Positions 5,449 through 40,116 of a stretch of DNA of 40,116 nt are shown one piece after another. Origin of the DNA: Spirochaetota bacterium (GTDB lineage Bacteria; Spirochaetota; UBA4802; JAFGDQ01). The stretch covers positions 1 to 40,116 of the forward strand of contig JAXHTB010000001.1 in assembly GCA_034190185.1 (NCBI GenBank), read 5' to 3'. Within the stretch, counting starts at the first letter, position 1; every line of letters begins with the position of its first letter. The notes beneath the pieces were generated by a model. That model was not told the origin of the DNA. It searched no databases and saw nothing but the letters and a program-made list of their open reading frames with translations. The position numbers were made by a program, and so were the translations under genes.

Positions 5449-5460
5449 AAGTAATATATC

Positions 5461-5496
5461 TTATAAGGGGACATTTAAACCAATGTCTCCTTATAA
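5461..5496 (+). terminator. Rho-independent-type terminator after paralog 2
   Basis: A 14-bp stem, TTATAAGGGGACAT / ATGTCTCCTTATAA, with one G.U pair and an 8-nt loop, followed by a T-rich tract. Confidence 0.55.
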
Positions 5497-5555
5497 TTAC
5501 ATTTTTACTTTTTAATTCTTCCTTTCTAATTTTAAATTCTTTCAATCCTGCCATA

Positions 5556-5980
5556 GATATTTTTTCCAGACAATTTTGGTTAAAGTGATCTACAGATATG
5601 TCCTCAGGTATTACATATTTGGATATACCTGTATATGCCGATGCATTTACTTCATTTAAAATATATATGGTAATCGAATTAGTGTAAAAGGAATTCCTAA
5701 AGTCAGTATTTTATGGACTGTTGTTGGTTGCACTGGAGCATTGCTTATTGCAGAAGAATATGAGAAAAAGATTGGAGTTTAGATGTAGGTAAAGAGTATA
5801 TAAAAGTAGTTCAGATAGTCATTGCTTCACAAGAGTTAAGGCTGAAGTATAAAGGTGTTAACTGTATTTAGATACAGTGATTAGATCAGATTTCTACAGT
5901 TTTTTAATATATAACAACTTTAAATTATAAGAGAAGATTATAATTACCAGGTTTTTGTAGATTATCAGAGCAGAGACTTT
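5556..5980 (+). pseudogene. Heavily decayed internal fragment of a third copy of the 2516/4189 binding-protein gene
   Basis: The DNA aligns colinearly with ~4574..5012 of paralog 2. Examples: caattttggttaaagtgatctacag vs aaattttggtcaaagtgatcctcag; aagattggagtttagatgtaggtaaagagtat vs aagattggagttgaagtagtaggccaggagtat; attagatcagatttctacag vs attgagtcagatttgtacag. It carries many stops and indels. Confidence 0.7.
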
Positions 5981-6418
5981 TTTTTATGTATTAGTGCTAA
6001 ATTTACAGTAGAATATATATTTACTCTTATTTATTATCGAAATGAAAAATATTGATATATGTAAATTTGTAAGATTTATTTGAAAAAAATCGTTGCAAAA
6101 AAATTTTCTTAATATATAAAAATTATGGAATTCTACTCACAGTTTTATAAAATAATCAAAAAGAAACAGTTTATCATTAATAATTACTGTACAATTAATA
6201 TTATTTGAAATTTGTATATACTGTATCTATGTAGAATATAAACCAATTGTTATAAGGATTATAAAATACATCATCTGAACCTAACCAACGAAATATCGTA
6301 AGACCTTTTTTAAGATAAAAGTTATTTAATTTATATACAAAAATAATATTTATAATTTTAATTAGATTGATTACAATTATACAAATTATAATAAAAATAA
6401 TATATGTTGAAGTTCGGT

Positions 6419-6978
6419 ATGAATGCAATAAGTAACTTATTATTTTGTTTATTTTCTAGGTTTGCATTGTTCTTATTAACAGTTCCATTAGTAAGGCAGA
6501 AGATGTAAGAGGAGTAACAGATAATTCGATTAAGATTGGTCTTAGCATGGATCAAACTGGTCCTGCTGCCTCCACTCTTGTCCCTCTTACTAGTGCAGTT
6601 CGAAATTTAGCAAGAAATGTGAATGAAATTGGCGGTGTTAATGGTAGAAAATTAAAAATAATTGTTGAAGATGATCGTTATTCAATCCCACCAGCTAAAG
6701 CTGCAATCAAAAAACTAGTATACAAAGTAATATATTTGCACTTATTGGTCCCAGTTCTGCAAGTTTAATAAATGTTATATGGAAACATATCCAGAAAAAT
6801 AAATTACCGATCAGGGAATTAATGAAGTTTGGATTAAAAATTTCGGTCTTTCAAACTTATGTTGCTATATTAGTTGAGGAACTAGCTCAAATGGGAAAGG
6901 TAGCAGAGAATGCATATATAGTTCATGCAATTCACCATGGTATGGAAAGGGTGCTGGAGTTGCAGTGATGAGGAATTG
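6419..6978 (+). pseudogene. Deleted and frameshifted copy of the 9719..10924 binding-protein gene
   Basis: Near-identical DNA to 9719..10626. The track ORF 6547..6768 translates to MDQTGPAASTLVPLTSAVRNLARNVNEIGGVNGRKLKIIVEDDRYSIPP, matching residues of the 9719 gene. There is an early stop in the signal-peptide region and 1-nt deletions (e.g. acaaagtaatatatttg vs acaaagataaaatatttg). A 348-bp internal deletion joins 6810|6811 (equivalent to 10113..10460). Confidence 0.9.
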
Positions 6979-7155
6979 GAGTAAATATTATAATTTCTTC
7001 TGATGCAAGGATATCTTTCATATTAACAAAAATAGAATTCTTGCATCATTAGGAATGACACCATCTGATAATTGGATTTTTCCATAGTTTTTGGAGATAC
7101 TCATATCATTTACTGCATATCTTATCATAAAAATATATAATTGGAATACTTTGAT

Positions 7156-8055
7156 ATGAAGAATTTGAAATATTTTGCAAGCTTGCATAATCATACAATT
7201 TATTCTGATGGCAGTTTTCAGATTCGAGAATTGATTAATAAAACTAAAGATGTAAATGAGGAGCTTAGAGTTAAGCGTGGGATAATGATTAAGGGACTTG
7301 CAATCGTTGATCATGATTTTTATCCTAATGAGGTTATTATTGAAGAGGAGAGGGATTATGCTAAGAAGTTCGGTATTGAACTTATATTTGGCACAGAGAT
7401 CAGCGCTGATAGTGCCAGTGTCCATATAATTGGATATGAGTTAAAACCCTCTAATTATTCTATCTATCAGTTTATGTTAAAGGAGCAGTTTAAAAGGCTT
7501 GAAGCTTTTGAGGATACATGCCGACGGCTAAATCGGTTATTCGAACGAGAAGGCATTACTATTGACTTAAATAAAGATGTTGGCCCTAAGGCTCTAAAGA
7601 AGGATAAAAAGGGCAGAATAATTGAACATGCGCCTCTTAGATGGCATTATTTAAGGGAGGCTATGAAGGAGCGCGGCATGGCAAAAGATAGTAAGGAAGC
7701 TAATATCCTTATTGGACCAGGCGGCCCTTGTTATCATCAAAGGGAAACTATTGATAGCATTAGTGCAATTGAGCTTATCATAGGCAGTGGCGGAAAGCCA
7801 GTGTTAGCGCATCCGCATAAGATACCAGAGAGCTATCGATGGAGGATTATACGCTCTTTAATTGAAGCAGGGCTTACTGGGATAGAAGCTTTTCATGAAT
7901 CTTATTATGAATCGGAAGAAAGCAATATATACGTTGACCTCGCAAGGAAAAATGATCTTATGATATTATCAGGAACAGATCTTCACGATAATATTGAAGA
8001 TATAGGAAGATTTCTTGTGACTTATGATAAATATGAAAGCCTTAAATTGTGCTAG
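7156..8055 (+). CDS. PHP-domain metal-dependent phosphoesterase (TrpH/YciV-like)
   Basis: The motif series LHNHTIYSDG, VDHD, GTEIS, HIIGY, AHPH, GIEAFH and GTDLH is characteristic of the PHP fold. I prefer the ATG at 7156 over the TTG at 7141. Confidence 0.8.
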   Translation: MKNLKYFASLHNHTIYSDGSFQIRELINKTKDVNEELRVKRGIMIKGLAIVDHDFYPNEVIIEEERDYAKKFGIELIFGTEISADSASVHIIGYELKPSNYSIYQFMLKEQFKRLEAFEDTCRRLNRLFEREGITIDLNKDVGPKALKKDKKGRIIEHAPLRWHYLREAMKERGMAKDSKEANILIGPGGPCYHQRETIDSISAIELIIGSGGKPVLAHPHKIPESYRWRIIRSLIEAGLTGIEAFHESYYESEESNIYVDLARKNDLMILSGTDLHDNIEDIGRFLVTYDKYESLKLC

Positions 8056-8284: not shown

Positions 8285-8932
8285 CTATCTCGCTCTTTCT
8301 TCTATTTCGTAGCCTTTACTTTTTAATTTTTTTATGATTTGATCAGCATCAGCTATATCTAAATGGATAATACAGTCTTCTTTTTCTTTTCCGGGAGGTA
8401 TAATTGTGAACATAGAATTGATCTTCCCTTCTTGCTCAATGATCATACTTAATACTTCTTGAACGCTCCCAGACTCAGATGGATTAATGATGTGTAAGTG
8501 AACCCCTTTTTCTCCAAATCCTAATAAGGTAGTTGTTACTTTGTATAAATCAGTTGTAGTAGCTATACCTAGCAGTCTTTTCGGATCATTTTTTTCTACT
8601 ACAAGTAAGGTGCCGATTCCTTGTTCATGCGCTTCGGTTATTGCCTTTTCCAAAGGAGTATCAGGATTAACAGTGTAAAGGCTTGTCACCATAACATCTT
8701 TGACCTTCATTTTAGCCAGTAAATAATTGAGTTCCCATACGCCTAAACTTGTAGCTGGAGTGATAGTCGCTTCTCTGATCCTATCTTTTGTTACTATGCC
8801 GACCAATTCCCCTTTATCTACAACTGGTAAACGACGTATTTTATGATCACGCATTATTTTCTCAGCATCATGGATTAATGTACCGCTATTCACAGTAATA
8901 ACATTGGTGTTCATATACTCCTTTATATACAT
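8285..8932 (-). CDS. CBS-pair protein with C-terminal ACT-like domain (AcuB-like architecture)
   Basis: Two CBS repeats are present (MNTNVITV...HKIRRLPVVDKGELVGIVTKDRI and VKDVMVTSLYTV...GIGTLLVVE...LLGIATTTDL). They are followed by a ~70-aa beta-alpha-beta-type tail. AAGGAGG SD. Confidence 0.75.
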   Translation of the reverse strand: MYIKEYMNTNVITVNSGTLIHDAEKIMRDHKIRRLPVVDKGELVGIVTKDRIREATITPATSLGVWELNYLLAKMKVKDVMVTSLYTVNPDTPLEKAITEAHEQGIGTLLVVEKNDPKRLLGIATTTDLYKVTTTLLGFGEKGVHLHIINPSESGSVQEVLSMIIEQEGKINSMFTIIPPGKEKEDCIIHLDIADADQIIKKLKSKGYEIEERAR

Positions 8933-9718: not shown

Positions 9719-10924
9719 ATGAAAGAGAAGAGTAAAGTATTATCTTTGTTATTTTTTTCAGTAAGCATTTTTTTCTTGAACAGTTCAAATACTAAGGCAA
9801 AAGAGGTTAGGGGAGTATCAGAGAATTTAGTAAAGATTGGTCTTAGCATGGATCAAACAGGTCCTGCTGCCTCTACACTTGTTCCTCTTACAAATGCAGT
9901 TCGAAATTTAGCTAGACATGTGAATGAGATTGGCGGTATTAATGGTAGAAAATTAAAAATAATTGTTGAAGATGATCGTTATTCAATCCCACCAGCTATA
10001 GCTGCAATAAAAAAACTAGTATACAAAGATAAAATATTTGCACTTATTGGTCCCAGTTCGGCAAGTTTAATAAATGTTATATGGAAACATATCCAGAAAA
10101 ATAAATTACCGACTATTGTTGCACCATCAACTGAGGTTGCTGTTGTACCTTACAAAAAGTATTTATTCATCTTTACTGAGACTTATACAGGTCAAGCGAA
10201 AATTCTAGTCAACTATATGATCAATGATTATAAAATGAAGAAAAGGAGGATCGGTCTAGTCTATCCTGACACTGAGACTGGAAAAACTGATTTAAGGGCA
10301 GTTTTACCGAAATTAGAACAGTATAAAATTAAACCAGTTACAAGTCAAATATTGATGCCTGGTGCATTAGATGCTACATCTCAGGTTTTAAATTTGAAAA
10401 GGAATAGGGTAAATTGTATACTAAATATTGGGACAATTCCACCAACATCTGTCACCCTACTCAGGGAATTAATGAAGTTTGGATTAAAAATTCCGGTCTT
10501 TCAAACTTATGGTGCTATGTTAGGTGAGGAACTAGCTCAAATGGGAAAGATAGCAGAGAATACATATATAGTTCATGCTATTTCACCATGGTATGGAGAG
10601 GGTGCTGGAGTTGCAGAGATGAGGAAGATAACTTTAAAATATCATCCAGGAACTGAAAAACCGTATCGCGGTACCGCATATACTGGTGGATGGGCATTAG
10701 AGTCTGCCCTTGTTATTGGGATGAAAAAAGCAGGAAGAGATCTTAATTGCAATACATTGATTAAGGCTCTTGAGACTTTCAAAGATTATGATAATGGTGG
10801 ATTATGCGGAATTATTAATTACAGTCCCACAAGCCATAAAGGTGGGGATACTGCTAGAATATTTAAAGTTGATACCAATAGTAAGAAATATGTTGCCATT
10901 ACAGGATGGCTAAAGGCAGAATAG
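9719..10924 (+). CDS. ABC transporter periplasmic substrate-binding protein (Peripla_BP_6 / LivK-like), second family
   Basis: 401 aa with a signal peptide (LLFFSVSIFFLNSSNTKA). IGLSMDQTGPAAS...NEIGGINGRKLKIIVEDD is the canonical N-lobe of Leu/Ile/Val-type PBPs. Confidence 0.85.
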   Translation: MKEKSKVLSLLFFSVSIFFLNSSNTKAKEVRGVSENLVKIGLSMDQTGPAASTLVPLTNAVRNLARHVNEIGGINGRKLKIIVEDDRYSIPPAIAAIKKLVYKDKIFALIGPSSASLINVIWKHIQKNKLPTIVAPSTEVAVVPYKKYLFIFTETYTGQAKILVNYMINDYKMKKRRIGLVYPDTETGKTDLRAVLPKLEQYKIKPVTSQILMPGALDATSQVLNLKRNRVNCILNIGTIPPTSVTLLRELMKFGLKIPVFQTYGAMLGEELAQMGKIAENTYIVHAISPWYGEGAGVAEMRKITLKYHPGTEKPYRGTAYTGGWALESALVIGMKKAGRDLNCNTLIKALETFKDYDNGGLCGIINYSPTSHKGGDTARIFKVDTNSKKYVAITGWLKAE

Positions 10925-19557: not shown

Positions 19558-20495
19558 ATGAAAGCAGTATTCAATAGAGACGAACTACTAAAGCTTGAAC
19601 ACTCCCTGAAAAAGGAGTATCTATTTTTCCCCGGAATATTTGAAGTAGAATTGGAGCAGGGTCAGTCTGTTATTTTTAGGACGTCAATTGAAAAAACCAG
19701 CTTATAATAGATGAATGGGAAGAAGAAATAACGAGGAAAGGGAAAGAACATAATAGATATTCAAAAAAGAAAGAGCCCCTTAAAACATTATAATTGGGAT
19801 CTCCAAATTCTATTATTGATAAAGACAGAATAAACGCGGGCTATCACTGGTTTAGTGAATGGGGGCGCAATGCTATGATATCGCTTACAGGCTTGACCTT
19901 GTGCGCCGGTAAAAGGGATATTGCCTTTAATATTTTACGTAAATACTCAAATTATGGGAAAAACGGGCTTCTTCCAAATTATTTATCAAAGGATAATAAT
20001 CACTCATATAATTCTATAGATACTTCGCTGCTTTTTGGGGGGCAATAGAAAATTATATCTATTATACAAAAGAAAAGGATATCGTAATATAGCATCTTCT
20101 AAATCCTATGATAGAGATAATAAAGGCGTTTATAGAAGATCGTATGCCTATCGCGGAGATAAGGAAGGACGGGCTTTTATATTCGGGTAATAAGAACAGC
20201 CAGTATACATGGATGGATGCCGCTGTTAATGGCAAACCCGTGATACCGCGGCATGGCGCGGCAGTTGAGATGAATGCGCTCTGGTATAATGCCGTATCTT
20301 TTCTATATCTTGAATTCGGCGATTTTCTTGAGCTTGGATTATTGGAGAAAATTGAATATAAAATGCAGCTTTTTGAAAATCATTATATCCGAGATATTCA
20401 ATCTGGATCCGCCGTATACTGCCAAGGGGTGTATGGCGCAGGCATGGAATATGGGTGAGGTTATAAGATCGCTTGATTTAATTAGTCATGTCTAA
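19558..20495 (+). pseudogene. Glycogen debranching enzyme (GDE_C / amylo-alpha-1,6-glucosidase, archaeal type) pseudogene
   Basis: The AAGGAG SD and ATG are intact, but the reading frame is broken into at least 4 pieces in 3 frames. The pieces are MKAVFNRDELLKLEHSLKKEYL..., AGYHWFSEWGRNAMISLTGL..., YTWMDAAVNGKPVIPRHGAAVEMNALWYNA... and ...GCMAQAWNMGEVIRSL. Total length is under half of the ~2 kb expected. Confidence 0.85.
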
Positions 20496-24021: not shown

Positions 24022-27000
24022 ATGAAAAAGGGCAATCAGTTTCTTTTCGAAATATCATGGGAAGTTTGCAATAAAGTTGGAGGTATTTATACTGTAATTA
24101 GAAGCAAGCTTAATGAGGTCGTAAATAACTTTGGAGAAAATTATTTACTATTAGGACCCTTGTTTGAAGATAATCCAGAATTTTATGAAGATCATAGCGG
24201 AGATCTCGCAATTATTAATGATCAATTAAAACAGTCTAACATTACTTCTAAGGTCGGCAGGTGGAAGGTCGATGCTTCACCGAAGGTAGCACTTATTAAA
24301 TTTGAAGATTTTTCGGATAAAGATAAACTATTATACGAATTATGGAACGATTATGGCGTTGATTCAATGAGCGGCGGTTGGGATTATATTGAACCAGTGC
24401 TTTTTTCAACTAATGCTGCAAAGGCAATTGAGGTTATATATTCTCAATATGAAGATTTTAATATTTTTGCCCATTTCCATGAATGGATGACAGGAGCAGG
24501 ACTGCTATACTTAAGAAAAAATGTGCCAAATATCGCTACGATCTTTACATCTCATGCAACAGTTCTTGGAAGAAGCATGGCAGGAAACGGCGTCGATATC
24601 TACGGCACATTTCAGAATATTGATTCCAAAAAAGAATCGGCGAAATATAATGTAACAGCTAAACACACCCTAGAGTCAGCTTCGGCAAGAGAGACTGATT
24701 GTTTTACAACAGTAAGCGAAATAACAGGGATGGAAGCGACACATATTCTACATATGAAACCGGATGTTATTCTTCCAAACGGCTTCAATGTTCATGAGAT
24801 TCCTGACTATAATTCGAATAGAACATATTACAGAAAGAATAGAAAAAAAATGACGACCTTTGCTTCTCAATTCCTAATGAAGGATTTATCAGAGGAGGAT
24901 ACTGTCATCATATCAACATCAGGTCGGTATGAATATCACAATAAGGGAATTGACCTGCTTATAGATACGCTTGGAGAATTGTACAAAGAACAACATGAAT
25001 TAGAAAAAGGGATCATTGTATTTTTCTTTACAATTGGCGGATTTGTGGATATGTCAAAAGAAAAGAGTGGGAAGCTCTCCGGTGTCAAAGAAAGAATCCA
25101 GAAGTATTCTATGATATCGACTCATCCCCTATGGGACCCTTACAACGATCCAATTGCAAATGAATGTCACAATAAGAATATACAAAATAATCCAACTGAT
25201 AGAATAAATGTCATTTATATTCCAGTTTATCTTAACGGCAGGGACGGAGTTTTTAATATGGAATATTATGACGCCCTCTCAGGATGCGATCTTACGATCT
25301 ATCCATCCTTTTATGAGCCATGGGGCTACACTCCCTTAGAGAGCGCTGTGTACTCTATACCAACTGTTGTTTCGGATGTCGCAGGATTTGGGAATTGGAT
25401 AATAACTAATAAATTAAAGGGAGATGGTATAAAGATCGTTAGAAGATTTGGGGTTAATTATAATGATTCTGTGATTGATCTTAAAAGCTTTATTTTGTCA
25501 TTTATAAGAAAGGATGCCGACTCAATAAATTCGATGAAAATCTCTGCGAGGAGAATCGCTGAAAAGGCTGATTGGAAAATATTTTTTCAAAATTATACAC
25601 ATTCTTACGATATCGCATTAAAAAATAGGAATGATAGGCTTATAGGTAGAGACAGAAAAGAATTATTAAAATCAAAAGAACTCTTTCTTGCAAAGACATA
25701 TTCAACACGCCCGAGATTTCGCCAGTTTTCAATACAAGCGGCAATTCCAAAAGAGGTCGGGAAACTGAGAGAGCTTGCATATAATCTTTGGTGGACTTGG
25801 AATGACGACGCTTGCGATTTTTTTAAAAAAATGGATCCTGAACTATTTGAAGAACTAAATAATAATCCTGTGGCTTTTCTTGAATCTATAGAAATTCAAA
25901 AATTAAAAGGGATTATTTCAAATAAAGAATATATGCTGCTATACGAAAAGGTGACAAAAGAATTCACCAGATATCTTTCCGCAAGCAAGCCTCATTTGGA
26001 TATAAAATATATCTCAACAAAAAGACCCGTTGCTTATTTCTCTATGGAATTTGGATTCCATGAGTGTATGCAATTTTATTCCGGTGGATTGGGAATTCTT
26101 TCTGGAGATTATATTAAATCCGCTTCTGATTTGAATATGCCTGTCGTAGGAATTGGCCTTTTATACAAAAATGGCTATTTTAAACAACATATATCTAAAA
26201 TCGGGGAGCAGATTGAAGAATATGCTTTTAATGATTATTTGAGAATGCCCCTAAATGAACTTAAAAGAGAAAACGGGGAGAGATTATTAGTTAAATTAGG
26301 ACTGCCAGGCAGAACCCTGTATGCCCGTGTCTGGATGGCTGATATAGGAAGGGCTAAGGTATATTTCTTCGATACTGATATCCCAATGAATTCCGTATCT
26401 GACAGAGAGATAACGGGAAAATTGTATGGGGGAGGTGAAAGGATAAGAATAGAACAGGAGATATTGCTGGGTATAGGAGGTGTAAAATTACTTCAGAATG
26501 AATTAAATATATTTCCATCAGTCTATCATATCAATGAGGGGCATTCTGCGTTTCTTATCATTGAAAGGATCATAAACCTAATGAAAAAGTATAATATTGA
26601 TATAGATACAGCAAAGGAGGTTGTTAAGGCAAGCACTGTTTTCACTACACATACGCCAGTGCCGGCCGGCAATGAAACATTCGATATCCGCTTAATTGAA
26701 AATTATTATAGTAACTATATAAAAAATACAGGAATAAATCTTAAGGATATTATTGAGATGGGACACATTCAGCCATCAAATGTTGACCCCTATGAGATGA
26801 CTGTCCTAGCTTTGAATAATTCATATAAACGAAATGGCGTGAGTCGTCTTCATGGATATGTATCGCAAAATATGTGGAATGATTTATGGAAGGGATTTCT
26901 ATTAGAGGAATCCCCAATATTTCATATAACCAATGGGGTGCATGTGCCGACATGGCTTTCAAAAGAGATGAAAGAGCTGTTTTACGAGTATTGTTCAGAT

Positions 27001-28293
27001 GACCTTAATAAAACTTTATTGATAAGAGAGCAATGTGAGAAAATATTTAATATTCCGGATGATATTTTGTGGCAAACACATTTTGATTTGAAAAATAAGT
27101 TTATTAGTTATGTAAAAAAGGAAATTACAGCGCATTGGGAGAGGGAAGGAGAAGACTCAAGTCTTCTGAATAAATTTTTATCCACTCTGAACTCATCCTG
27201 TTTAACAATTGGTTTCGGAAGGCGCATTACAGCCTATAAAAGGGCCGCGCTATTTATAAAAAATTTGGACAGGCTGAGGAAAATAGTTAAAAATGAAAAA
27301 TATCCTATACAATTTATTATTGCAGGAAAAGCGCATCCTGATGATCAGAAGGGGCAGGATCTGGTAAAAGAGATTGTAGATATATCGAAACAAGAGGATT
27401 TTCTTGGTAAGATCGTATTTTTGGAAGACTATGACATGAAAATAGCACGAAAAATGGTCTCTGGAGTGGATGTATGGCTGAATAATCCAAGAAGACCTCT
27501 TGAAGCAAGCGGAACAAGCGGACAGAAGGCAGGCATCAATGGCGTAATAAACTTTAGTATACTTGACGGCTGGTGGGATGAAGGTTATGAAGGATCCAAT
27601 GGATGGATCATTGGAGATAGGAAGGAATATAAGAATCTGGATACGCAGGATGTTGTTGACAGTAATTCATTATACGATATCCTGGAAAATGAAATTATCC
27701 CCGCATATTATTTCAGAAAAGAGAAAGATATTCCTGAGAAATGGGTAAAAATAATGAAGAACTCCATAGTATCAATAATCTCTGAATATAATACTAACAG
27801 AATGCTTCGTGATTATGTTGTAAAAATGTATGAGCCAGCGGCTAAAAAATATTTTAAAATGTTTGAAGATGATTTTAATAAGGCAAAAGAAATTGTTCAA
27901 TGGAAGAAATCAATCAAATCAAGATTTTCCACTATCCGGATAAAAGATATTTCTGTTGTTGGGATATATGGAGATAATATAGATATCAATGACGAAATAT
28001 CAGTTACAATGGAAGTTGAATTGGGCAAGGTTTTTATAGAAGAATTAAGAGCAGAAATGCTAATATTTCAAGACAAGAAGATGGAAAACATTGATTATAC
28101 TGAAATGAGACCTGAGCGCAATAAAATAGAATATATTACAATGGATGCTATCGAAGAGAATGATAATAGTGTCAAATACAGTTGTAAATATAGAGGAGAG
28201 AAATCTGGGAAATATAATTTCGGCATAAGGGTTATTCCATACAACAATGATATTGACGATATTATCGATCTTGATCTGGTATATTGGGGATAG
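24022..28293 (+). CDS. Fusion protein: N-terminal GT3 (eukaryote-type) glycogen synthase + C-terminal GT35 alpha-glucan phosphorylase (DUF3417-type)
   Basis: Uninterrupted 1423 aa. The N-terminus [21 protein letters not shown] matches the GT3 glycogen-synthase signature ([17 protein letters not shown] in animals). From ~25.72 kb come [10 protein letters not shown] (DUF3417), YFSMEFG...[19 protein letters not shown], the PLP-lysine motif [15 protein letters not shown], and the typical ...GIRVIPYN...VYWG tail. Confidence 0.85.
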   Translation: [1423 protein letters not shown]

Positions 28294-33039: not shown

Positions 33040-33846
33040 TTATGGTTTTGCAGCTTTTATCATGACCCATGTCATTTCTCCCTTTGCCATAAGCTTCCCT
33101 TTCCATTCCCTGAATGCAAAATAGTTATCTTCGAATTTTCCCATTAGTTTTTCGCCTTCTCTTCTCCAGAGGAGTTCATAAGCGTCAAACCAGTGTGCTG
33201 CCATAGGTATCCCATCCGTGCCTTCCTGTTTATAGGAATATTTAAATGGCTGACGTTTTTTTATAATCATTCCTAATCTCTGGTATAAATTGATCAGCTC
33301 TTCTTCAGAGAAGAACCTGAAATCAGGACCATGTGAATTTTGAAATGCTTCTTCTATTAAATTGTTTATCTTTTTTTCGTCATCATCTACAGGGTCTTTT
33401 AATACTGGATCAACTGAGACTAAATAGCCATTGGGTTTCAAAACTCTGTGAATTTCCTTTACTGAACCTTCTGGATCAGTAAAATGGTGAAAGCTGAGCA
33501 TCAGGCATACTGAATCAAAAGATTCTGAGGGAAAAGGAAGTTTATCAGCTTTACCTAACACAACAGAGAAGTTCTTGATATTATTTTTTTCAATTTTTTC
33601 ACTGGCTAATTTAAGCATTCCATAACCGCTATCAATTCCAATGATAGTTCCTTCGGAGATTATATTATTGAGCAGTATTCCAAGTCTTCCTGTACCTGTT
33701 CCAACATCAAGCACCTTATCATTCTGAGATGGTGACAATTCTTTAATTAGGCTCTGTGTCAATTTTTTCACTGTTCCCATACTTTCGACCATTTGATCGA
33801 AATGAATAGCCTGATGATAATCCTGATAATTTATTTCTTCGTTCAT
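33040..33846 (-). CDS. Class I SAM-dependent methyltransferase with ~110-aa C-terminal extension
   Basis: Motif I is VLDVGTGTGRLG, followed by acidic post-I (IGIDS) and Methyltransf_11-like spacing (FDSVCLMLSFHHF, LKPNGYLV). The start overlaps the coaE stop in ATGA (33843..33846). Confidence 0.75.
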   Translation of the reverse strand: MNEEINYQDYHQAIHFDQMVESMGTVKKLTQSLIKELSPSQNDKVLDVGTGTGRLGILLNNIISEGTIIGIDSGYGMLKLASEKIEKNNIKNFSVVLGKADKLPFPSESFDSVCLMLSFHHFTDPEGSVKEIHRVLKPNGYLVSVDPVLKDPVDDDEKKINNLIEEAFQNSHGPDFRFFSEEELINLYQRLGMIIKKRQPFKYSYKQEGTDGIPMAAHWFDAYELLWRREGEKLMGKFEDNYFAFREWKGKLMAKGEMTWVMIKAAKP

Positions 33847-34448
33847 GACTTTCCTTCAATTTTTTGTTCCCATATCTCATTTACATGTTTTTCAACATCA
33901 GATATAGAACCAGTATTTTCTATAATAACATCTGCATGCTTTTTCCTTTCTTCATCTGATAGTTGTGATGCTATTCTAGATTCTGCATGTTCCTTTGTAA
34001 AACCCTTTGCACATAAGCGTTCGATTACAGTCTCTTTCTCGGCAACCACAAGCCAGACTTCGTCCACTAGGGGCAGCCAATTTGCTTCTATTAAGATTGC
34101 GGCATCAAGTACTATGACACCCTTATCTTTATTCTTCTTTTTAAATGCTTCTATGGTTTGTTCAAAGTTCTTATACATTCTGGGATGAACAATTTGGTTT
34201 AATTTGCTTACAGCCTCTTTGTTACTAAATACAATCTCACCAAGCTTTTTCCTGTTAATTGTCTTGTCCGGCTGCAGCAGGTCTTCTCCAAAGGTATCAA
34301 TTATATCCTTCCAAGCTTCGGTATTAGGAAGATATATTCCATGTCCTACTTTATCAGCATCAATAATTTCCGCGCCAAGTTTTGAAAGAATACTAGAAAC
34401 TGTACTCTTGCCTGTTGCAATACCTCCAGTTAATCCTATGACCTTCAT
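33843..34448 (-). CDS. coaE: Dephospho-CoA kinase
   Basis: 201 aa. P-loop MKVIGLTGGIATGKSTV is followed by ...DADKVGH...VHP...LDAAILIE, typical of CoaE. Confidence 0.9.
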   Translation of the reverse strand: MKVIGLTGGIATGKSTVSSILSKLGAEIIDADKVGHGIYLPNTEAWKDIIDTFGEDLLQPDKTINRKKLGEIVFSNKEAVSKLNQIVHPRMYKNFEQTIEAFKKKNKDKGVIVLDAAILIEANWLPLVDEVWLVVAEKETVIERLCAKGFTKEHAESRIASQLSDEERKKHADVIIENTGSISDVEKHVNEIWEQKIEGKS

Positions 34449-34486
34449 TATATAAACTCCTTTTTAGGTTTGCCTTGTATATTCAA

Positions 34487-35707
34487 TTATCCTAGCATTT
34501 CCATAAAATTTGCTATCTGATTTCTAATATATTCTTTATCATAGTCTCTTACATCTGAAAGATCACCAGGGATCAAGAGGGATGGTATTCCGAATTCTTC
34601 TGTAATCTCATCTTTAACTATCTTTTGACCTCCACAGTATAATCTACATCCTTTGTGGGTATACATTATTACTCCATCGATCTTATTTTCTCTGATCATT
34701 TCCTTAGTGAGATTTACGCGATTTTCAATAACTCCATTGAAAAAATTTGCAATATATTTTCTTGCCAGACTGTCAAGAGGATTATCTGGGTCTAACTCTC
34801 CAAGATATATATAATCCATATCTGACCGAACAAGTACACCTCCAAATTCTTCTACGTAATTGAGGAGGCTTGTATCATAGTTGATAATTGGTCCAAGCCA
34901 AAGCAGTCTATGCTTCTCATTTTCTATAATTCCCTTACCCTCTTTGACACGCTCTTGCACCTCTTTTAACAGCATCTGATAAAAACCAACTGCTTCTTTT
35001 GTTCCGAGTAACTGGATGAGTGGGTATATAGTGGATGATTCTTCAACGAGACTCATTGGGCAGGGAACAGTCTTTCTAAGCTCACTTATTTCCATCCAAA
35101 GGTCGTTAGTTTGTTTTGCATATCCAATTGTTTCTTTTAGTTTCTTTTCATCCAGTGGCTTGTTTGTTAATTTTTCAAGTATTGCTATCAATTCCTCACA
35201 CTGTTCCCTGTAGTATGCCACCTTTTCTTCTTCTACAGTTTCTTCAGTTCCGATTGTTGTTTGAAAGGGTGAATCCATTACATAATAGGGTACCTTGTAG
35301 TGTTCAACAACAGGAATATGAAGTTTAACACCACCATCACATGCATTAGTAGCCCCGATCACAAAATCGGGTTCCGGGATCATTAATTCCTCGCCAGAAA
35401 GCGCATATCCAACCACAGCCCTGTGGAAAGAGCAAATATTTCTTGGATAACCAAGATTTTCTGCCAGTTCAAGATAAGGAACTATCTTCTGCTTTACTGC
35501 AAGAAGTGTAGAGAAATGTTCTGTCATCATTGGCACAACATCCATTGCATGCAAAAGCTCAAGGGGCGCCATTAATATTGTCCAGATTACAGGCTTTTTA
35601 TCAAGTTTAGCTTGCCTTGCTTTTGCATAATAATCCTTTGCAATAGGCCATACAAGCCTTGCTGTCTTAAGCTTCTTTTTGGAACTGCTAAGGTCTGTTG
35701 AGCTCAT
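34487..35707 (-). CDS. 2-hydroxyacyl-CoA dehydratase / benzoyl-CoA reductase BcrB/C-family subunit (HGD-D), subunit 2
   Basis: 406 aa. Family-typical blocks are ICSFHR, PDFVIGATNACDGG, VPYYVMDSP, IDGVIMYTHKGCRLYCGG and GIPSLLIPGD. GAGGTG SD. Confidence 0.75.
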   Translation of the reverse strand: MSSTDLSSSKKKLKTARLVWPIAKDYYAKARQAKLDKKPVIWTILMAPLELLHAMDVVPMMTEHFSTLLAVKQKIVPYLELAENLGYPRNICSFHRAVVGYALSGEELMIPEPDFVIGATNACDGGVKLHIPVVEHYKVPYYVMDSPFQTTIGTEETVEEEKVAYYREQCEELIAILEKLTNKPLDEKKLKETIGYAKQTNDLWMEISELRKTVPCPMSLVEESSTIYPLIQLLGTKEAVGFYQMLLKEVQERVKEGKGIIENEKHRLLWLGPIINYDTSLLNYVEEFGGVLVRSDMDYIYLGELDPDNPLDSLARKYIANFFNGVIENRVNLTKEMIRENKIDGVIMYTHKGCRLYCGGQKIVKDEITEEFGIPSLLIPGDLSDVRDYDKEYIRNQIANFMEMLG

Positions 35708-35999
35708 TTCTGCACCTCAATTTTTATATTTATGGTTTTTATTGATCTAAAGGAACAAAGGCATAAAGATACTAAGGCAAAAAAGCAAGGATGTAGTTAT
35801 TCAACATTATTGGTTAATTATTTGAGTGTAACCAGAAACTATCGAATTTCTCTCATTTTATAGCTACAATTAAGTAAATAATAAGGATTTAGCATTTTTA
35901 AAGCAAATAATCTTTGCTTTAAGTTTTGAGGTTTACGATTTGCAGCTTAAAATATATCCTGAATTATATATTCTATAACCTTTGAACTTATAATTGATA

Positions 36000-37478
36000 T
36001 TAACCTTTTAAATGATGATGTCTATAATATTCAATAACCTTACTAAGGGCAACAGCTCCTCTTGTAAAGCTGGGGAAGTTTGCAATGCTTTTTTCAAGAA
36101 GTCGATTTTTCATTTCAATAGCGCCTGTCTCTACCTTTGAAGGTGGAATAATAACTATCAACGGTTTTTTTGACTTATTTCTGAAATTCTCAAGTGTGTT
36201 ATAAAAATATTCTTCAAAGTCTGTAAAGGCTTCTTTAAACCATTTTAAAAGATGCGCTGACATTTCTATTACAATAGCATCTATATTTTCATCATTATCA
36301 AGGATATCCATAGTAATATCTAAAAGTCTTTCCTTGCTTGGTATATCATCTCTTCCTAATAATGCTCGTCGAGTACTTTCTGCTAAGGAAAGGTTCCCAC
36401 CAAGATCGATAGGATTTCTATAACTAGCGCCTACAAGTGCAAAGATGGAGGCTAATTCTTGATAAGATTTTTCTGTAAGCATAGGAGCCTTAAAACCAAC
36501 TTTGGCAAATTGGTCTGTCATGTTTACACATTGCCCACCGCTTAATGATATAAGCCCAAGATTTTTCCCTCTTACTTCTGGAGTGTAGAGCAACATCATA
36601 ACAGTGTCAACAAGTTCTTCCAGATCATCAATCTGTATAGCTCCGCACTGCTTTATCAATGTCTCCCACATAAACATTGACTCCGCCATGGAACCGCTGT
36701 GCGAGGATGTGGCTATTGATCCCTCCTCAGTTTGACCGCCCTTCCATATAAGAATCGGTTTGCTGTTTGCTGATCTACTTAATAGATTGAACAGGGCTCT
36801 TCCATCTTTTATCCCTTCAATGTACATAGCAATAATTTTAGTCTCGTCATCCTGTAATAGATATTCACAATAATCTGTGCTGTCTAGAATATATGCATTC
36901 CCGAAACTGACAAGTTTGCTAATATTTATTCTGTTGTTATGTCCCACTACACTGAAGTTTATAGCGTGCCCACCGCTTTGAGATATAAAACCTACTTGGC
37001 CATTTTCTCCAGAATATTGGTCAGGGCTGTTTCTTAGACCCAATCTTGGATTGAAGATACCCATGCAATTGGGGCCAATGAGGTTTAGGTTTCCTTCCTT
37101 TGCGATTTCAGTGATAGTATTTGCAAGCTCTATTCCTTTTTCTGTCTTGGTTTCTGCAAAACCTGAAGTAAACATTGTAACTCCACCTACATCTTTATCT
37201 ATGCAATCCTTTAATATTATTGGAGATACCTCTCTAGGAACCGCCATTATAACATAATCCACAGGATCGGGCACATCCTTCAAGCTCAAATAGTTCTTTA
37301 TGCCGAGTTCTTCTATCCCAGGAATTTCATTTGGATCAATATTAACTGAAAAGACATCTCCCTGAAAGGTTTTTAATGATCTAAGGAAGAAGTAGTTATT
37401 ATTTTCATATTTATCACCAATAACTGCAACAGATCTTGGGTTAAATGCTCTCTTTAATCGGTCTAATTTAGATTCCAT
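36000..37478 (-). CDS. ADP-forming acyl-CoA synthetase alpha-type module (CoA_binding_2 + Succ_CoA_lig), no ATP-grasp domain
   Basis: Contains FNPRSVAVIGD, LIGPNCMGIFNP, GFISQSGG and the phospho-His motif region TSSHSGSMAES (compare SHTGALAG in ACD alpha). 492 aa, so there is no room for a fused beta/ATP-grasp part. Confidence 0.75.
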   Translation of the reverse strand: MESKLDRLKRAFNPRSVAVIGDKYENNNYFFLRSLKTFQGDVFSVNIDPNEIPGIEELGIKNYLSLKDVPDPVDYVIMAVPREVSPIILKDCIDKDVGGVTMFTSGFAETKTEKGIELANTITEIAKEGNLNLIGPNCMGIFNPRLGLRNSPDQYSGENGQVGFISQSGGHAINFSVVGHNNRINISKLVSFGNAYILDSTDYCEYLLQDDETKIIAMYIEGIKDGRALFNLLSRSANSKPILIWKGGQTEEGSIATSSHSGSMAESMFMWETLIKQCGAIQIDDLEELVDTVMMLLYTPEVRGKNLGLISLSGGQCVNMTDQFAKVGFKAPMLTEKSYQELASIFALVGASYRNPIDLGGNLSLAESTRRALLGRDDIPSKERLLDITMDILDNDENIDAIVIEMSAHLLKWFKEAFTDFEEYFYNTLENFRNKSKKPLIVIIPPSKVETGAIEMKNRLLEKSIANFPSFTRGAVALSKVIEYYRHHHLKG

Positions 37479-37620
37479 TAATGTGCCTCTTTGTTTTATG
37501 CAATTAATATTACTATTGAGGATATTTTTTTAAGTCTTTAGATAGACTTATAGCATTAGATACAAGATGTTATTGGGCGCCTATTATATTTATGGAAATA
37601 GTTTTTCGAAGGTAATTTTT

Positions 37621-38265
37621 TTATTTTTTTCGATACATCTCTGCTCTGTATCTTCCAGCTTTTAGTTCACGGATAAGATCTTGTACATTCTCTATCCTGT
37701 TTTCAAATATTGTTACAGAGCGTCCAACCTCTTGTAGTGTATGAGCATCGCTGCCGCCAGTGCCTTTAAGGTTTAGCATATTGCATACATTCATAGTGAA
37801 TTCATTTTCAATATCGCTGTTTTCTCCATTTATTGCCTCAATTGTGTCCATCTGTTTTAGGTATGGTTTTTTACTAGCTTCTTCCACGCTTAGGGATAAG
37901 CCAGGTATGGAGAAATCTTTTCCTTCAATAAATGCTCCTCTAAAGGGGTGAGCTGCTATCATCACTCCACCAACTTCATCAACCTTCTTTCTCAATTCAT
38001 TTATTGATACAATTCCTTCGCACTCTTTATCAAGACCAAAGACCAGAATGTCTCCATCCATTGAGGTTATCTCTACTCCCCCAAGGACTAAGAAGTTGTG
38101 TTCTTCGGACAATTTACGGATTTCCTCTGAGTCCCAGATTTTGTCGTGTTCAGTTAAACAGATACCATCAAGTCCAATACTTATAGCTTCCTCTATTAGT
38201 TCAACAGGGGTTATCTCACTGCATTGTGAGGCAGGAATTGTATGAATATGCATATCTATTATCAT
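37621..38265 (-). CDS. PHP-domain metal-dependent phosphoesterase (short form, 214 aa)
   Basis: Motifs MIIDMHIHT, LTEHD, GGVEIT, AAHPFR, EAING and GGSDAH. Its ATG overlaps the stop of the upstream HGD-D subunit in ATGA (38262..38265). Confidence 0.8.
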   Translation of the reverse strand: MIIDMHIHTIPASQCSEITPVELIEEAISIGLDGICLTEHDKIWDSEEIRKLSEEHNFLVLGGVEITSMDGDILVFGLDKECEGIVSINELRKKVDEVGGVMIAAHPFRGAFIEGKDFSIPGLSLSVEEASKKPYLKQMDTIEAINGENSDIENEFTMNVCNMLNLKGTGGSDAHTLQEVGRSVTIFENRIENVQDLIRELKAGRYRAEMYRKK

Positions 38266-39386
38266 AACATCTCCAAAAAAGCCTGAATTCTTGTTCTTAG
38301 TTGACCGAGGCCTGATGAAGGATGTTCTAACTCCACTTCAATTACGGGAATATTTTTTTCTTTGAGTCTGTTTTTTTGACCTACAAAATCGTATTGAAAG
38401 GTATCACAGTACATAAGACCGTATAAGATCACTCCATCAACCTTATAATCTTCTATCATATTAAACATATATTCAAATCGGGCATAAGGAGGTTCAATAC
38501 AGGCGCATGGAGCCATATTTAAATATCGAACACTTATATCATTTAAGGGATTACCCCCGTTATTGATATTGTCCCAGAAATACCGAGTTCCTGTACATAG
38601 ATCATCAGTGACTACTTCTGCTCCACACTCCTCTATTAGTTGAAAAAAGGATGTATTATCAATAATACTTCCACTGATCATTAATCTTGGTTGAGATTTC
38701 GGTTGATTTTCTATATTGTCGATATCTTTAATTAGTTCTTTCAGCAGCTTATTGTGCTGATCCTTTGGCATTATCATGCTTGATCTAATAATCTCAGATA
38801 TCTCAATAGCGCTTAATGGAGATTTATCATTTTTAAGATGGTTATGAATCTGCTTTAACAGTTCTCGGTTTTCGTTGTAGATTTCAATGGCATTCTTAAG
38901 GCTATTATCAGTGATCTCTATACCGGAGAATTTCTCTAACGATTCTTTAAGATTTTGTAATAATTTGAAATGATATTTTTGAGCTGTGTCAGTGATCTTA
39001 TGAGGATGATCTAACATGAATGAATATTTTGGTTCTATATATAATCGCCAATTATCAAAAAGTCGACATACAGCATCACAGCAATGAGCCACAATTATTC
39101 CATCTAAATAATCGTATTGTTTATCCAAAGCAAGGCCAAGGCAACCTCGAATGTAAGGGCACATATTGCTTTGCAGATAATCATCTCCCTCGCTTATTGT
39201 TGTTTCTTTGCTCATGATCCGGATTGGCAACATTCCGGCTGCATAGACAATTTCTTCCGGAACATAGTTACAAACCCAGCCGATTGCTTTTTTACCTTGG
39301 TCTTTCCATTCTATAATTGATTTATTGTGAGGGAATGAATTTAGTTCATCCCTCATTATCTTTAAGCTTTCAATTGAATGTGACAT
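38262..39386 (-). CDS. 2-hydroxyacyl-CoA dehydratase / benzoyl-CoA reductase BcrB/C-family subunit (HGD-D), subunit 1
   Basis: 374 aa. Family-typical blocks are KAIGWVCNYVPEEIVYAAGMLPIRI, MCPYIRGC, LDGIIVAHCCDAVC, VVTDDLCTGTRYF, VDGVILYGLMYCDTFQ and IPVIEVELE...GQLRTRIQAFLEML. Confidence 0.8.
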   Translation of the reverse strand: MSHSIESLKIMRDELNSFPHNKSIIEWKDQGKKAIGWVCNYVPEEIVYAAGMLPIRIMSKETTISEGDDYLQSNMCPYIRGCLGLALDKQYDYLDGIIVAHCCDAVCRLFDNWRLYIEPKYSFMLDHPHKITDTAQKYHFKLLQNLKESLEKFSGIEITDNSLKNAIEIYNENRELLKQIHNHLKNDKSPLSAIEISEIIRSSMIMPKDQHNKLLKELIKDIDNIENQPKSQPRLMISGSIIDNTSFFQLIEECGAEVVTDDLCTGTRYFWDNINNGGNPLNDISVRYLNMAPCACIEPPYARFEYMFNMIEDYKVDGVILYGLMYCDTFQYDFVGQKNRLKEKNIPVIEVELEHPSSGLGQLRTRIQAFLEML

Positions 39387-39779: not shown

Positions 39780-40116
39780 TCAAGGTTCAATATTAGCAGT
39801 AATGAGTCCATCGGAAATTGTAATTATCCCCTTTCCCAACTGTTTCTCAATCACATCTCCAAGTAGAATATCCGGGTCTGTTTTCAGATATAGATCGTTC
39901 ATCTCGATGAACCAGACGCTCTTTTTCAAATAATTGATATATTCGTTTTTTTCAATTCTACCCTTTCTTAATATATGAAATATTATAATCCTGGGCAGCA
40001 AGTGATGAGCAATCATTACAGGATCATTGATGAATTCATCAATACGCAAAAGACAGGTGTCGATATTGTTTTGTGCATCATAGATTGGTTTTCCGTGTCC
40101 GGGATAGATGACATCA
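39780..40116 (-). CDS. C-terminal part of an MBL-fold metallo-hydrolase-like protein (partial, runs off the right edge)
   Basis: The frame is open to the window edge. The translation begins DVIYPGHGKPIYDAQNNI..., the PGHG motif near the end of the metallo-beta-lactamase fold, followed by a ~90-aa helical tail. The 'start' in the ORF track is an internal TTG. Confidence 0.55.
   Translation of the reverse strand, partial: DVIYPGHGKPIYDAQNNIDTCLLRIDEFINDPVMIAHHLLPRIIIFHILRKGRIEKNEYINYLKKSVWFIEMNDLYLKTDPDILLGDVIEKQLGKGIITISDGLITANIEP

Follow-up and report, generated by a model that had tools for sequence, protein, structure and literature searches.

A putative acyl-CoA reductase/dehydratase operon in which genes for a PHP hydrolase and an acyl-CoA synthetase alpha subunit separate the two HGD-D subunit genes

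The DNA analysed in this study (the window) is a 40,116-bp contig of a metagenome-assembled genome (MAG) labelled Spirochaetota in NCBI, where its proteins are deposited as MDY6967025-55. It carries a cluster of six minus-strand open reading frames (ORFs) encoding, among others, two HGD-D proteins of the benzoyl-CoA reductase/2-hydroxyacyl-CoA dehydratase (BCR/HAD) family, a PHP-fold hydrolase and the alpha part of an ADP-forming acyl-CoA synthetase (ACD). The six ORFs sit at the coordinates that an earlier note on this DNA had assigned to them, and the gene order, coordinates and family assignments proposed in that note hold when compared with the ORF list and with Pfam and NCBIfam scans. The genes of the cluster, in the direction of transcription, and their upstream neighbour are:

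38262..39386, minus strand: N-type (BzdN/HadC-like) HGD-D subunit 1 (Pfam HGD-D, 328.3 bits against a cut-off of 28.4, 1e-97)
37621..38265, minus strand: PHP-fold metal-dependent hydrolase, 214 aa (Pfam PHP, 31.5 against 26.4; PHP_C, 55.3 against 21.3)
36000..37478, minus strand: ACD-alpha, the alpha subunit of an NDP-forming acyl-CoA synthetase (Pfam CoA_binding_2 and Succ_CoA_lig, above cut-offs)
34487..35707, minus strand: O/alpha-type (HadB/BzdO-like) HGD-D subunit 2 (Pfam HGD-D, 260.5 bits against 28.4, 4e-77)
33843..34448, minus strand: dephospho-CoA kinase CoaE (Pfam CoaE; equivalog model TIGR00152, 171.9 against a cut-off of 65.55)
33040..33846, minus strand: UbiE/MenG-like class I S-adenosylmethionine-dependent methyltransferase (Pfam Methyltransf_31/11/25)
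39780..40116, minus strand: 3' part of a metallo-beta-lactamase-fold (Lactamase_B/ODP) gene (Pfam Lactamase_B, 4e-33)

The genes for subunits 1 and 2 are referred to below as the N and O genes. Direct reading of the sequence confirmed two previously reported ATGA overlaps, one between the N and PHP genes (4 bp) and one between coaE and the methyltransferase gene, and the coordinates confirm the gaps of 142 bp (PHP to ACD-alpha) and 292 bp (ACD-alpha to O); coaE, the fifth gene, starts 38 bp after the O gene. Neither of the two gaps contains a terminator-like site. Promoter and terminator scans of the window gave nothing above the shuffled background, and an Rfam scan of the window gave no match.

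Related contigs (designated by L-numbers) were obtained by looking up the exact sequences of the proteins most similar to subunit 1 and to the PHP protein, complemented by a metagenome scan, and were annotated by seed searches. In every contig of the clade (L002, L004/L011, L005, L006, L012-15 and L047) the genes follow the order N-type HGD-D, PHP, ACD-alpha, O-type HGD-D, and a coaE gene lies 3' of the O gene in all six contig records that reach that far (the window, L006, L012, L013, L014 and L047), which represent four lineages. Identities between copies range from 65 to 96% for the five proteins, which indicates about six distinct lineages; CoaE, with 73-83% identity across the clade, is conserved like the other four. 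With 35% GC the window lies below the other contigs (41-45%), the core and its flanks being alike in GC within each contig. Ten of 10 contig records, among them L001 from the window's own organism, share exactly the same 4-bp overlap of the N and PHP genes; the conserved ...LEML* codons that end the N gene contain a GGAG. Recurrence of this ATGA-overlapped pair in related loci had been suggested earlier as a check, and the pair does recur.

The surroundings of the block are variable. The upstream flank is different in every lineage and the downstream flank exists in three versions, and the block is never broken. The flanks contain (i) SecA and ArgJ genes (L005), (ii) genes for four PaaK-like ligases, a second ACD-alpha and a GalT-like HIT protein (L002), (iii) genes for a solute-binding protein, a MarR-type regulator, an FAD-oxidase/CCG protein, an acyl-CoA dehydrogenase and an electron transfer flavoprotein (ETF) (L004), (iv) genes for phosphoglycerate kinase (PGK) and a DnaC-like protein (L014), and (v) an M50 peptidase gene upstream and ribosomal and tRNA genes downstream (L006). 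The N subunits of L004 and L014 are 96% identical and the regions upstream of them are unrelated, with the block intact in both. The conserved unit comprises five genes (33843-39386), of which the four-gene core is certain and CoaE a probable member. Separation of the two HGD-D subunits by a translationally coupled PHP gene, first seen in the window, is a conserved feature, and PHP and ACD-alpha are found in all orthologous clusters; the layout is indeed not the classical hgdCAB, fldAIBC or lcdCAB one.

As far as seen, the block is distributed among a handful of uncultivated anaerobes. A scan of species-representative genomes with subunit 1 gave one distant match only (33% identity, L010) and brought up no cultured or representative genome containing the block. 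The MAGs holding block copies are labelled Spirochaetota, Thermodesulfobacteriota and Pseudomonadota (window, L002 and L005), and despite differing phylum labels the four copies showing coaE encode CoaE proteins that are 73-83% identical; either the block, including coaE, moves between phyla or some contigs are mis-binned. In L012 (6707-8178) the ACD-alpha gene is split into two overlapping ORFs, which points to a frameshift or sequencing error, because the near-identical L013 and L014 have the gene intact. A search of the available literature revealed no paper linking a PHP gene with the BCR/HAD enzyme family, and none linking an ADP-forming ligase with a 2-hydroxyacyl-CoA dehydratase in a gene cluster.

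Among solved structures, the best relative of subunit 1 is BzdN (8s02_B, 9e-59), followed by HadC and the double-cubane cluster protein (DCCP). Its Cys39, Cys76, Cys103, Cys264, Cys294 and Cys327 align with Cys36, Cys73, Cys100, Cys263, Cys293 and Cys327 of BzdN, which were named as the [8Fe-9S] ligands in the BzdNO structure (PMC11971306). The six Cys residues are invariant in the orthologues and present in 67 of 82 sampled relatives, and Cys39 and Cys264 stand opposite non-Cys residues in HadC. Subunit 1 is predicted to bind an [8Fe-9S] double-cubane cluster through these residues. In BzdN this cluster stores at least two electrons for a two-electron reduction, while the dehydratases have lost the double cubane and kept a [4Fe-5S] remnant (PMC11971306). 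The label "dehydratase-like" given to the pair in the earlier note is therefore doubtful: subunit 1 has the complete six-Cys site that true dehydratases have lost, and its retention points to a reductase-type electron store.

Subunit 2 is closest, among solved proteins, to HadB (3o3m_A, 1.3e-35), then to MbdO and BzdO. Cys92, Cys123 and Cys354 together with Glu63 align with Cys95, Cys128, Cys380 and Glu65 of BzdO and predict a [4Fe-4S] site of three Cys, with an open iron, along with the conserved Glu. This E-C-C-C set is present in nearly all sampled O subunits. In all clade members, Gly126 occupies the position of the catalytic His131 of BzdO and Ala47 that of the ring-stacking Trp46; the resulting signature A-E-C-C-G-C was found, among the sampled O subunits, only in the clade. 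As judged from the alignment, the His and Trp by which benzoyl-CoA is positioned and protonated are missing from subunit 2.

By its sequence, the enzyme is a heterodimer of two paralogous HGD-D subunits that pairs a reductase-type electron store with a catalytic subunit not built for benzoyl-CoA. The NCBIfam equivalog models fit neither subunit well. The top match of subunit 1 is NF040772 (DCCP) with 251.9 bits against a cut-off of 350, and its scores for HadC (224.7 against 700), BzdN (193.8 against 453.8) and BcrC (172.3 against 421) are lower still; subunit 2 reaches 164.1 for HadB (cut-off 750), 97.6 for BcrB (486.6) and 89.7 for BzdO (448.6). With scores so far below the equivalog cut-offs, the protein pair belongs to the superfamily but fits none of the families characterised within it.

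The Bzd enzyme (BzdNOPQ; BzdNO structure 8s02, PMC11971306) likewise has two paralogous HGD-D subunits, N with six Cys and O with three Cys and a Glu at a [4Fe-4S]-OH2 site, but the operon described here is without the His131 and Trp46 counterparts in O and without genes for the BzdP and BzdQ ATPases, and has PHP, ACD-alpha and CoaE genes interleaved. The (R)-2-hydroxyisocaproyl-CoA dehydratase HadBC, with its activator HadI (3o3m), supplies the best solved match of subunit 2 (HadB, which also has no His at the BCR position) and the second-best of subunit 1 (HadC), but the dehydratase beta subunit has the [4Fe-5S] remnant where subunit 1 has all six Cys. In contrast to the Had, hgdCAB, fldAIBC and lcdCAB clusters, the operon contains neither a CoA-transferase nor an activator gene, ACD-alpha being present instead, and its subunit genes are apart. 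DCCP (6eno), which works with DCCP-R, shares the six-Cys [8Fe-9S] signature of subunit 1; it is, however, a one-gene homodimer, whereas the operon also encodes a catalytic-type subunit that has a single cubane.

In a neighbour-joining (NJ) tree of 82 N-type subunits, 100 of 100 bootstrap replicates recovered the clade as monophyletic, and 89 of 100 gave it as sister a solitary N gene located among housekeeping genes (L016/L058). The next N relatives belong to clusters (L017-L026) of the types N-ACT-O-O and N-ACT-O-ACT, where ACT is an activator gene; this larger group was recovered in 41 of 60 replicates. The closest two-subunit relatives (L017, L018, L020 and L026) have 44% identity in N and 39-45% in O. 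The O subunits agree with this independently: among those outside the clade, those of L026 and L020 (45%) and of L018 and L017 (39-41%) are nearest, and all others have at most 37%. The ACT genes of the sister clusters encode bona fide PF01869 proteins.

These metagenome operons resemble the block in that N and O are separated and the surroundings are acyl-CoA catabolic, and they differ in having BcrAD_BadFG ATPases where the clade has PHP plus ACD-alpha and CoaE. As N and O are also apart in the sister clusters, the N/O split predates the clade; as the nearest relatives are N-ACT-O-ACT, PHP and ACD-alpha occupy the first activator slot and CoaE the second. The two ATPase subunit genes of class I benzoyl-CoA reductase, present in the sister clusters, are not in the operon. 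The clade has kept the [8Fe-9S] and open [4Fe-4S] sites, lost both activator genes from the operon and gained PHP, ACD-alpha and CoaE. The solitary N gene of the sister group (L058 9415-11128, also in L016) encodes the nearest relative of subunit 1 outside the clade (49% identity) and has no O partner; its neighbours in L058 are UvrC, MreB and GGDEF genes, and at its upstream end it overlaps a gene for a small TehB-like methyltransferase.

The absence of an activator ATPase and of an ATP-grasp partner from the 40 kb, reported in the earlier note, was borne out by several searches. Pfam scans, which took in all 27 non-nested window ORFs of at least 100 aa, detected no BcrAD_BadFG activator and no ATP-grasp protein among them. 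A hidden Markov model (HMM) built from 22 family-associated activators matched none of the window ORFs of at least 70 aa, and tblastn with these 22 activators and YjiL found no activator in the window and its right-hand extension, where PatZ matched through its alpha-like part only. This extension is the Logan contig L001, which continues the window for about 1.8 kb past its right end; no activator lies within it, and beyond the metallo-beta-lactamase-fold gene it has a second, divergent, alpha-only ACD gene. Neither an activator or ATP-grasp gene to the right of the window nor a relative lacking the PHP gene, which had been named as evidence to look for against the proposed module, was seen. 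A profile of 12 sister-clade activators gave at least 8000 matches; among the matches listed with a source name, none came from Spirochaetota.

The absences themselves stand, but they carry less weight than had been placed on them. Of the other N-O loci, 20 had at least 2 kb of upstream and 5 kb of downstream sequence; an activator was found in the locus in 11 of these and not in the other nine, which are likewise without a nearby activator. The lack of a beta subunit gene loses weight in the same manner, as in Pyrococcus furiosus two ACS beta genes stand against five alpha genes, and each of the ten possible alpha-beta pairs is an active enzyme (PMC3942289). Partners encoded elsewhere are compatible with absence from the neighbourhood because of the nine loci without an activator, the P. 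furiosus gene ratio, a separate, unrelated clade (L043) in which an alpha-only ACD gene also adjoins an N-O pair, and the second ACD copies near the block. A supposed full-length ACD beside the N-O pair of L074 was rejected, the protein being an acetyl-CoA hydrolase/transferase-GNAT protein.

The ACD-alpha protein of the operon has no ATP-grasp part by Pfam, and neither the window nor any related locus yielded an ATP-grasp beta part. The alignment with TIGR02717 spans residues 8-484 and scores 310.7 bits, below the equivalog cut-off of 567, and the motif SSHSGSMAE begins at residue 258, which makes His260 the candidate phosphohistidine. The best solved relative is the P. horikoshii protein 2csu (8e-58), followed by ACD1 alpha (4xyl). 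The window copy is 74-76% identical to those of the related contigs, which are 78-91% identical among themselves. ACD and ACS alpha subunits (2csu, 4xyl, P. furiosus ACS) thus share with this protein the full alpha architecture from end to end and the phosphohistidine motif; the protein differs in scoring below the equivalog cut-off, in having no beta in any copy and in being encoded between the subunits of a radical enzyme. The second alpha-only ACD genes, divergently upstream of the block (L001 2-994, approximately window 40950-41940, and L002 7875-9365), encode paralogues with 32-42% identity to the operon copy, and that of L002 adjoins a gene for a 349-aa GalT-like HIT-motif protein, which is also found upstream of the block in L006.

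Across 64 homologues of the PHP protein there is no variation at H6, H8, H40, E65, H106, D173 and H175, in our reading the metal-binding residues of the fold, so an active PHP hydrolase is likely. Its AlphaFold2 model (predicted local distance difference test, pLDDT, 95) has as nearest folds TM0559, RNase AM, BVU_3505, BAD_1165, PsfC and Cv1693, with TM-scores of 0.58-0.74 and identities of 15-22%; TM0559 and BVU_3505 are of unknown function and Cv1693 is a pAp phosphatase. The protein shares the fold and a complete set of metal-ligand-type residues with the TrpH/RNase AM/Cv1693 branch and TM0559, but it is shorter (214 aa) than members of that branch, is distant from them (15-22% identity) and belongs to an uncharacterised subfamily. 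The best NCBIfam match is the CehA/McbA metallohydrolase domain (1.5e-19, below cut-off), of an ester/carbamate hydrolase family. NF041577, the model for 3',5'-nucleoside bisphosphate phosphatase, scores 33.4 against a cut-off of 400 and covers residues 2-67 only.

The PHP subfamily has several thousand members. At about 50% identity they are encoded 3' of two small Cys-containing DUF2889 genes, in three of three independent contexts, and fusions exist; at 60-62% identity, the closest relatives outside the clade lie 3' of a gene for a NapH-like polyferredoxin with 27-29 Cys (L007 7926-9942; L095 5203-7642). An HGD-D gene as the upstream partner occurs only in the clade. In each PHP subgroup, the gene upstream thus encodes a protein that is rich in Cys or belongs to the Fe-S proteins. 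The DUF2889-DUF2889-PHP triad is widespread (L008 9080-10627; L093 4992-6633; L094 5106-6633; fusions P0216 and P0217), its DUF2889 proteins have 3-5 Cys in recurring positions, and in a literature search DUF2889 appeared as an essentially undescribed family.

The methyltransferase, which the earlier note had counted among the cluster partners, has no homologue in any related locus and was rejected as a member of the block, being present in the window only. In two lineages a gene for a protein of about 150 aa without a Pfam match lies 3' of coaE (L006 10800-11258; L012 10340-10786; L013 8362-8660; L014 12654-13100), where the window has the methyltransferase gene. The genes after coaE in L006 and L014 are housekeeping genes, and L006 has a CTP_transf_like gene 3 kb downstream which, being of CoaD size, we read as phosphopantetheine adenylyltransferase (PPAT). 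What was proposed earlier for the cluster as a whole stands for the unusual layout and the conserved split, fails for the methyltransferase and is doubtful for the dehydratase label.

With moderate confidence, we regard the operon (33843-39386) as an uncharacterised BCR/HAD acyl-CoA reductase/dehydratase operon whose activator and beta subunit are encoded elsewhere. The substrate would be an acyl-CoA thioester other than benzoyl-CoA, bound in the O subunit. A low-potential electron would pass from the N cluster to the O cluster and reduce the thioester carbonyl to a ketyl-type radical, by analogy with known members of the family (PMC11971306). Net reduction would be somewhat likelier than redox-neutral dehydration, because the two-electron store is retained. 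The electron would be supplied by an ATP-driven BcrAD_BadFG activator encoded elsewhere; to our knowledge, every characterised BCR/HAD enzyme depends on an ATP-hydrolysing activator that injects an electron of very low potential. ACD-alpha may make or cleave the thioester through an acyl-phosphate and phospho-His260, with an ATP-grasp beta subunit encoded elsewhere. The PHP protein, made in step with the N subunit, would act in the same pathway, either on a phosphorylated or esterified acid precursor or on the nucleotide end of CoA, and CoaE, as a conserved co-transcribed neighbour, may tie the CoA supply to the pathway.

An acyl-CoA function is supported by the surroundings of the block and of its relatives. 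The sister locus L020 is an acyl-CoA catabolic operon with genes for two enoyl-CoA hydratases, methylmalonyl-CoA mutase and its B12 subunit, thiolases, an acyl-CoA dehydrogenase and a DUF35 protein, and in L004 the block stands beside the acyl-CoA dehydrogenase, ETF and FAD-oxidase/CCG protein genes mentioned above. Several observations weigh against this interpretation: (i) no activator or ATP-grasp gene was found in about six independent copies with flanks of up to 10 kb, (ii) the closest two-subunit relatives carry activators inside the operon, (iii) reductase-type members of the family probably need the ATPase stoichiometrically, which makes its loss from the operon less expected, (iv) the equivalog scores of both HGD-D subunits are all under the cut-offs, and (v) none of the tests accounts for the roles of PHP and CoaE.

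A more specific version of the same explanation, which we consider unlikely as it stands, is a linear pathway in which the PHP protein frees an acid by hydrolysing its phosphorylated or esterified precursor, ACD-alpha ligates it to CoA and N/O reduces or dehydrates the thioester, with CoaE a mere housekeeping neighbour. The gene order of hydrolase, ligase and catalytic subunit fits such a sequence of steps, as do the match of the PHP protein to the CehA/McbA metallohydrolase domain and the housekeeping genes that follow coaE in L006 and L014. However, the PHP gene is coupled to the N subunit and not to the ligase, no candidate substrate is indicated, and CoaE stays attached while the downstream flank changes three times.

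It is improbable that, as the earlier note suggested on grounds of family resemblance, the PHP protein is a 3'-phosphatase acting on CoA, acyl-CoA or 3',5'-ADP in a cycle in which CoaE restores the phosphate. RNase AM and the 3',5'-adenosine bisphosphate phosphatase Cv1693 are among the neighbours of the PHP model (TM-score 0.58-0.65), the N-terminal part weakly matches the nucleoside bisphosphate phosphatase model, and CoaE is a genuine equivalog that is always present. On the other hand, the best structural matches are of unknown function and share only 15-22% identity, the NF041577 score is 33 against 400 while the strongest NCBIfam match is to the CehA/McbA ester/carbamate hydrolases, and the wider PHP subfamily is associated with DUF2889 pairs or polyferredoxin and not, as a rule, with CoA enzymes. 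Moreover, the cycle would be futile, with a phosphatase and a kinase working on one and the same group, and nothing tested singles out the CoA 3'-phosphate as the substrate.

Even less probably, the synteny reflects descent only, the contigs coming from close relatives whose gene order is a sign of shared ancestry and not of joint function. Consistent with this are the 65-96% identity of all five proteins, including the housekeeping CoaE, across the copies, the GC range of only 35-45% and the disagreement of the MAG phylum labels, which may be binning errors. Against it, the block is unbroken while its upstream flank differs per lineage and its downstream flank comes in three forms, all copies keep the 4-bp overlap, and an alpha-only ACD gene has become linked independently to the N-O pair in L043.

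Very doubtful, finally, is a replacement of the activator, in which PHP, ACD-alpha and CoaE take over from the two BcrAD_BadFG ATPase subunits and prime or drive the enzyme by phosphoryl or CoA chemistry (an acyl-phosphate, the phospho-His or an ATP-consuming 3'-phosphate cycle on CoA). PHP and ACD-alpha stand exactly at the first ACT position of the closest two-subunit relatives and CoaE at the second, no clade copy has an activator nearby and the translational coupling of N and PHP is strictly conserved; but coinciding positions are no evidence of function, an Fe-S Cys motif or a known redox cofactor site is lacking in all three proteins, so there is no obvious electron donor, 45% of the other N-O loci are also without a nearby activator, and the immediate N sister is solitary and without one, so that PHP and ACD-alpha perhaps came in after the adjacency had been lost. 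The evidence for activation without an activator is confined to absence from neighbourhoods, and we give this reading very little credence.

What is new here is a BCR/HAD-family enzyme in an undescribed conserved operon, whose architecture is real and unexplained. If the activators are encoded elsewhere in the genomes, it would represent a new acyl-CoA reductase/dehydratase pathway with an unusual ligase and hydrolase; if the genomes have none, it would point to a new activation mode, and a replacement of the activator by PHP, ACD-alpha and CoaE would be a new way of energising the BCR/HAD family. The operon also provides the first genomic context for the uncharacterised PHP subfamily and for beta-less ACD-alpha proteins.

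The upstream neighbour of the block on the same strand, the metallo-beta-lactamase-fold gene, is not a conserved member. The ORF at 39780-40049 (89 aa) is the C-terminal end of this 309-aa gene product, whose gene runs off the window and continues in L001. Metallo-beta-lactamase genes were found near three copies of the block, but, being of different subfamilies (ODP-type and glyoxalase II-type) and at differing positions, they were rejected as block members.

Several features elsewhere in the window deserve mention. A 1423-aa ORF on the plus strand (24022-28293), considered as a fused activator-dehydratase and rejected, is a glycogen synthase-phosphorylase fusion, with a Glycogen_syn/GT1 N-terminal half and a C-terminal half composed of DUF3417 and carbohydrate phosphorylase. 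It lies in a glycogen cluster together with genes for a GT4 glycosyltransferase, a GH57 enzyme and a CBS protein, and the presence of synthase and phosphorylase in one polypeptide is unusual. The amylo-alpha-1,6-glucosidase (GDE_C) gene at 19558-20495 (plus strand) is broken over at least four ORFs in different frames and is either a frameshifted pseudogene or the product of assembly errors. A second PHP gene (7141-8055, plus strand) encodes a longer, TrpH-like protein of about 300 aa and is adjoined by genes for a CBS-pair protein (8285-8932, minus strand) and a Peripla_BP_6 binding protein (9719-10924, plus strand); the DUF2889-DUF2889-PHP triad of L093 likewise has a CBS gene and Peripla_BP_6 genes in its flanks. 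The AT-rich region of about 1.7 kb before it (5449-7140) has no long ORF, and a 73-aa fragment within this region (6547-6768), which resembles a piece of Peripla_BP_6, is probably a gene remnant.

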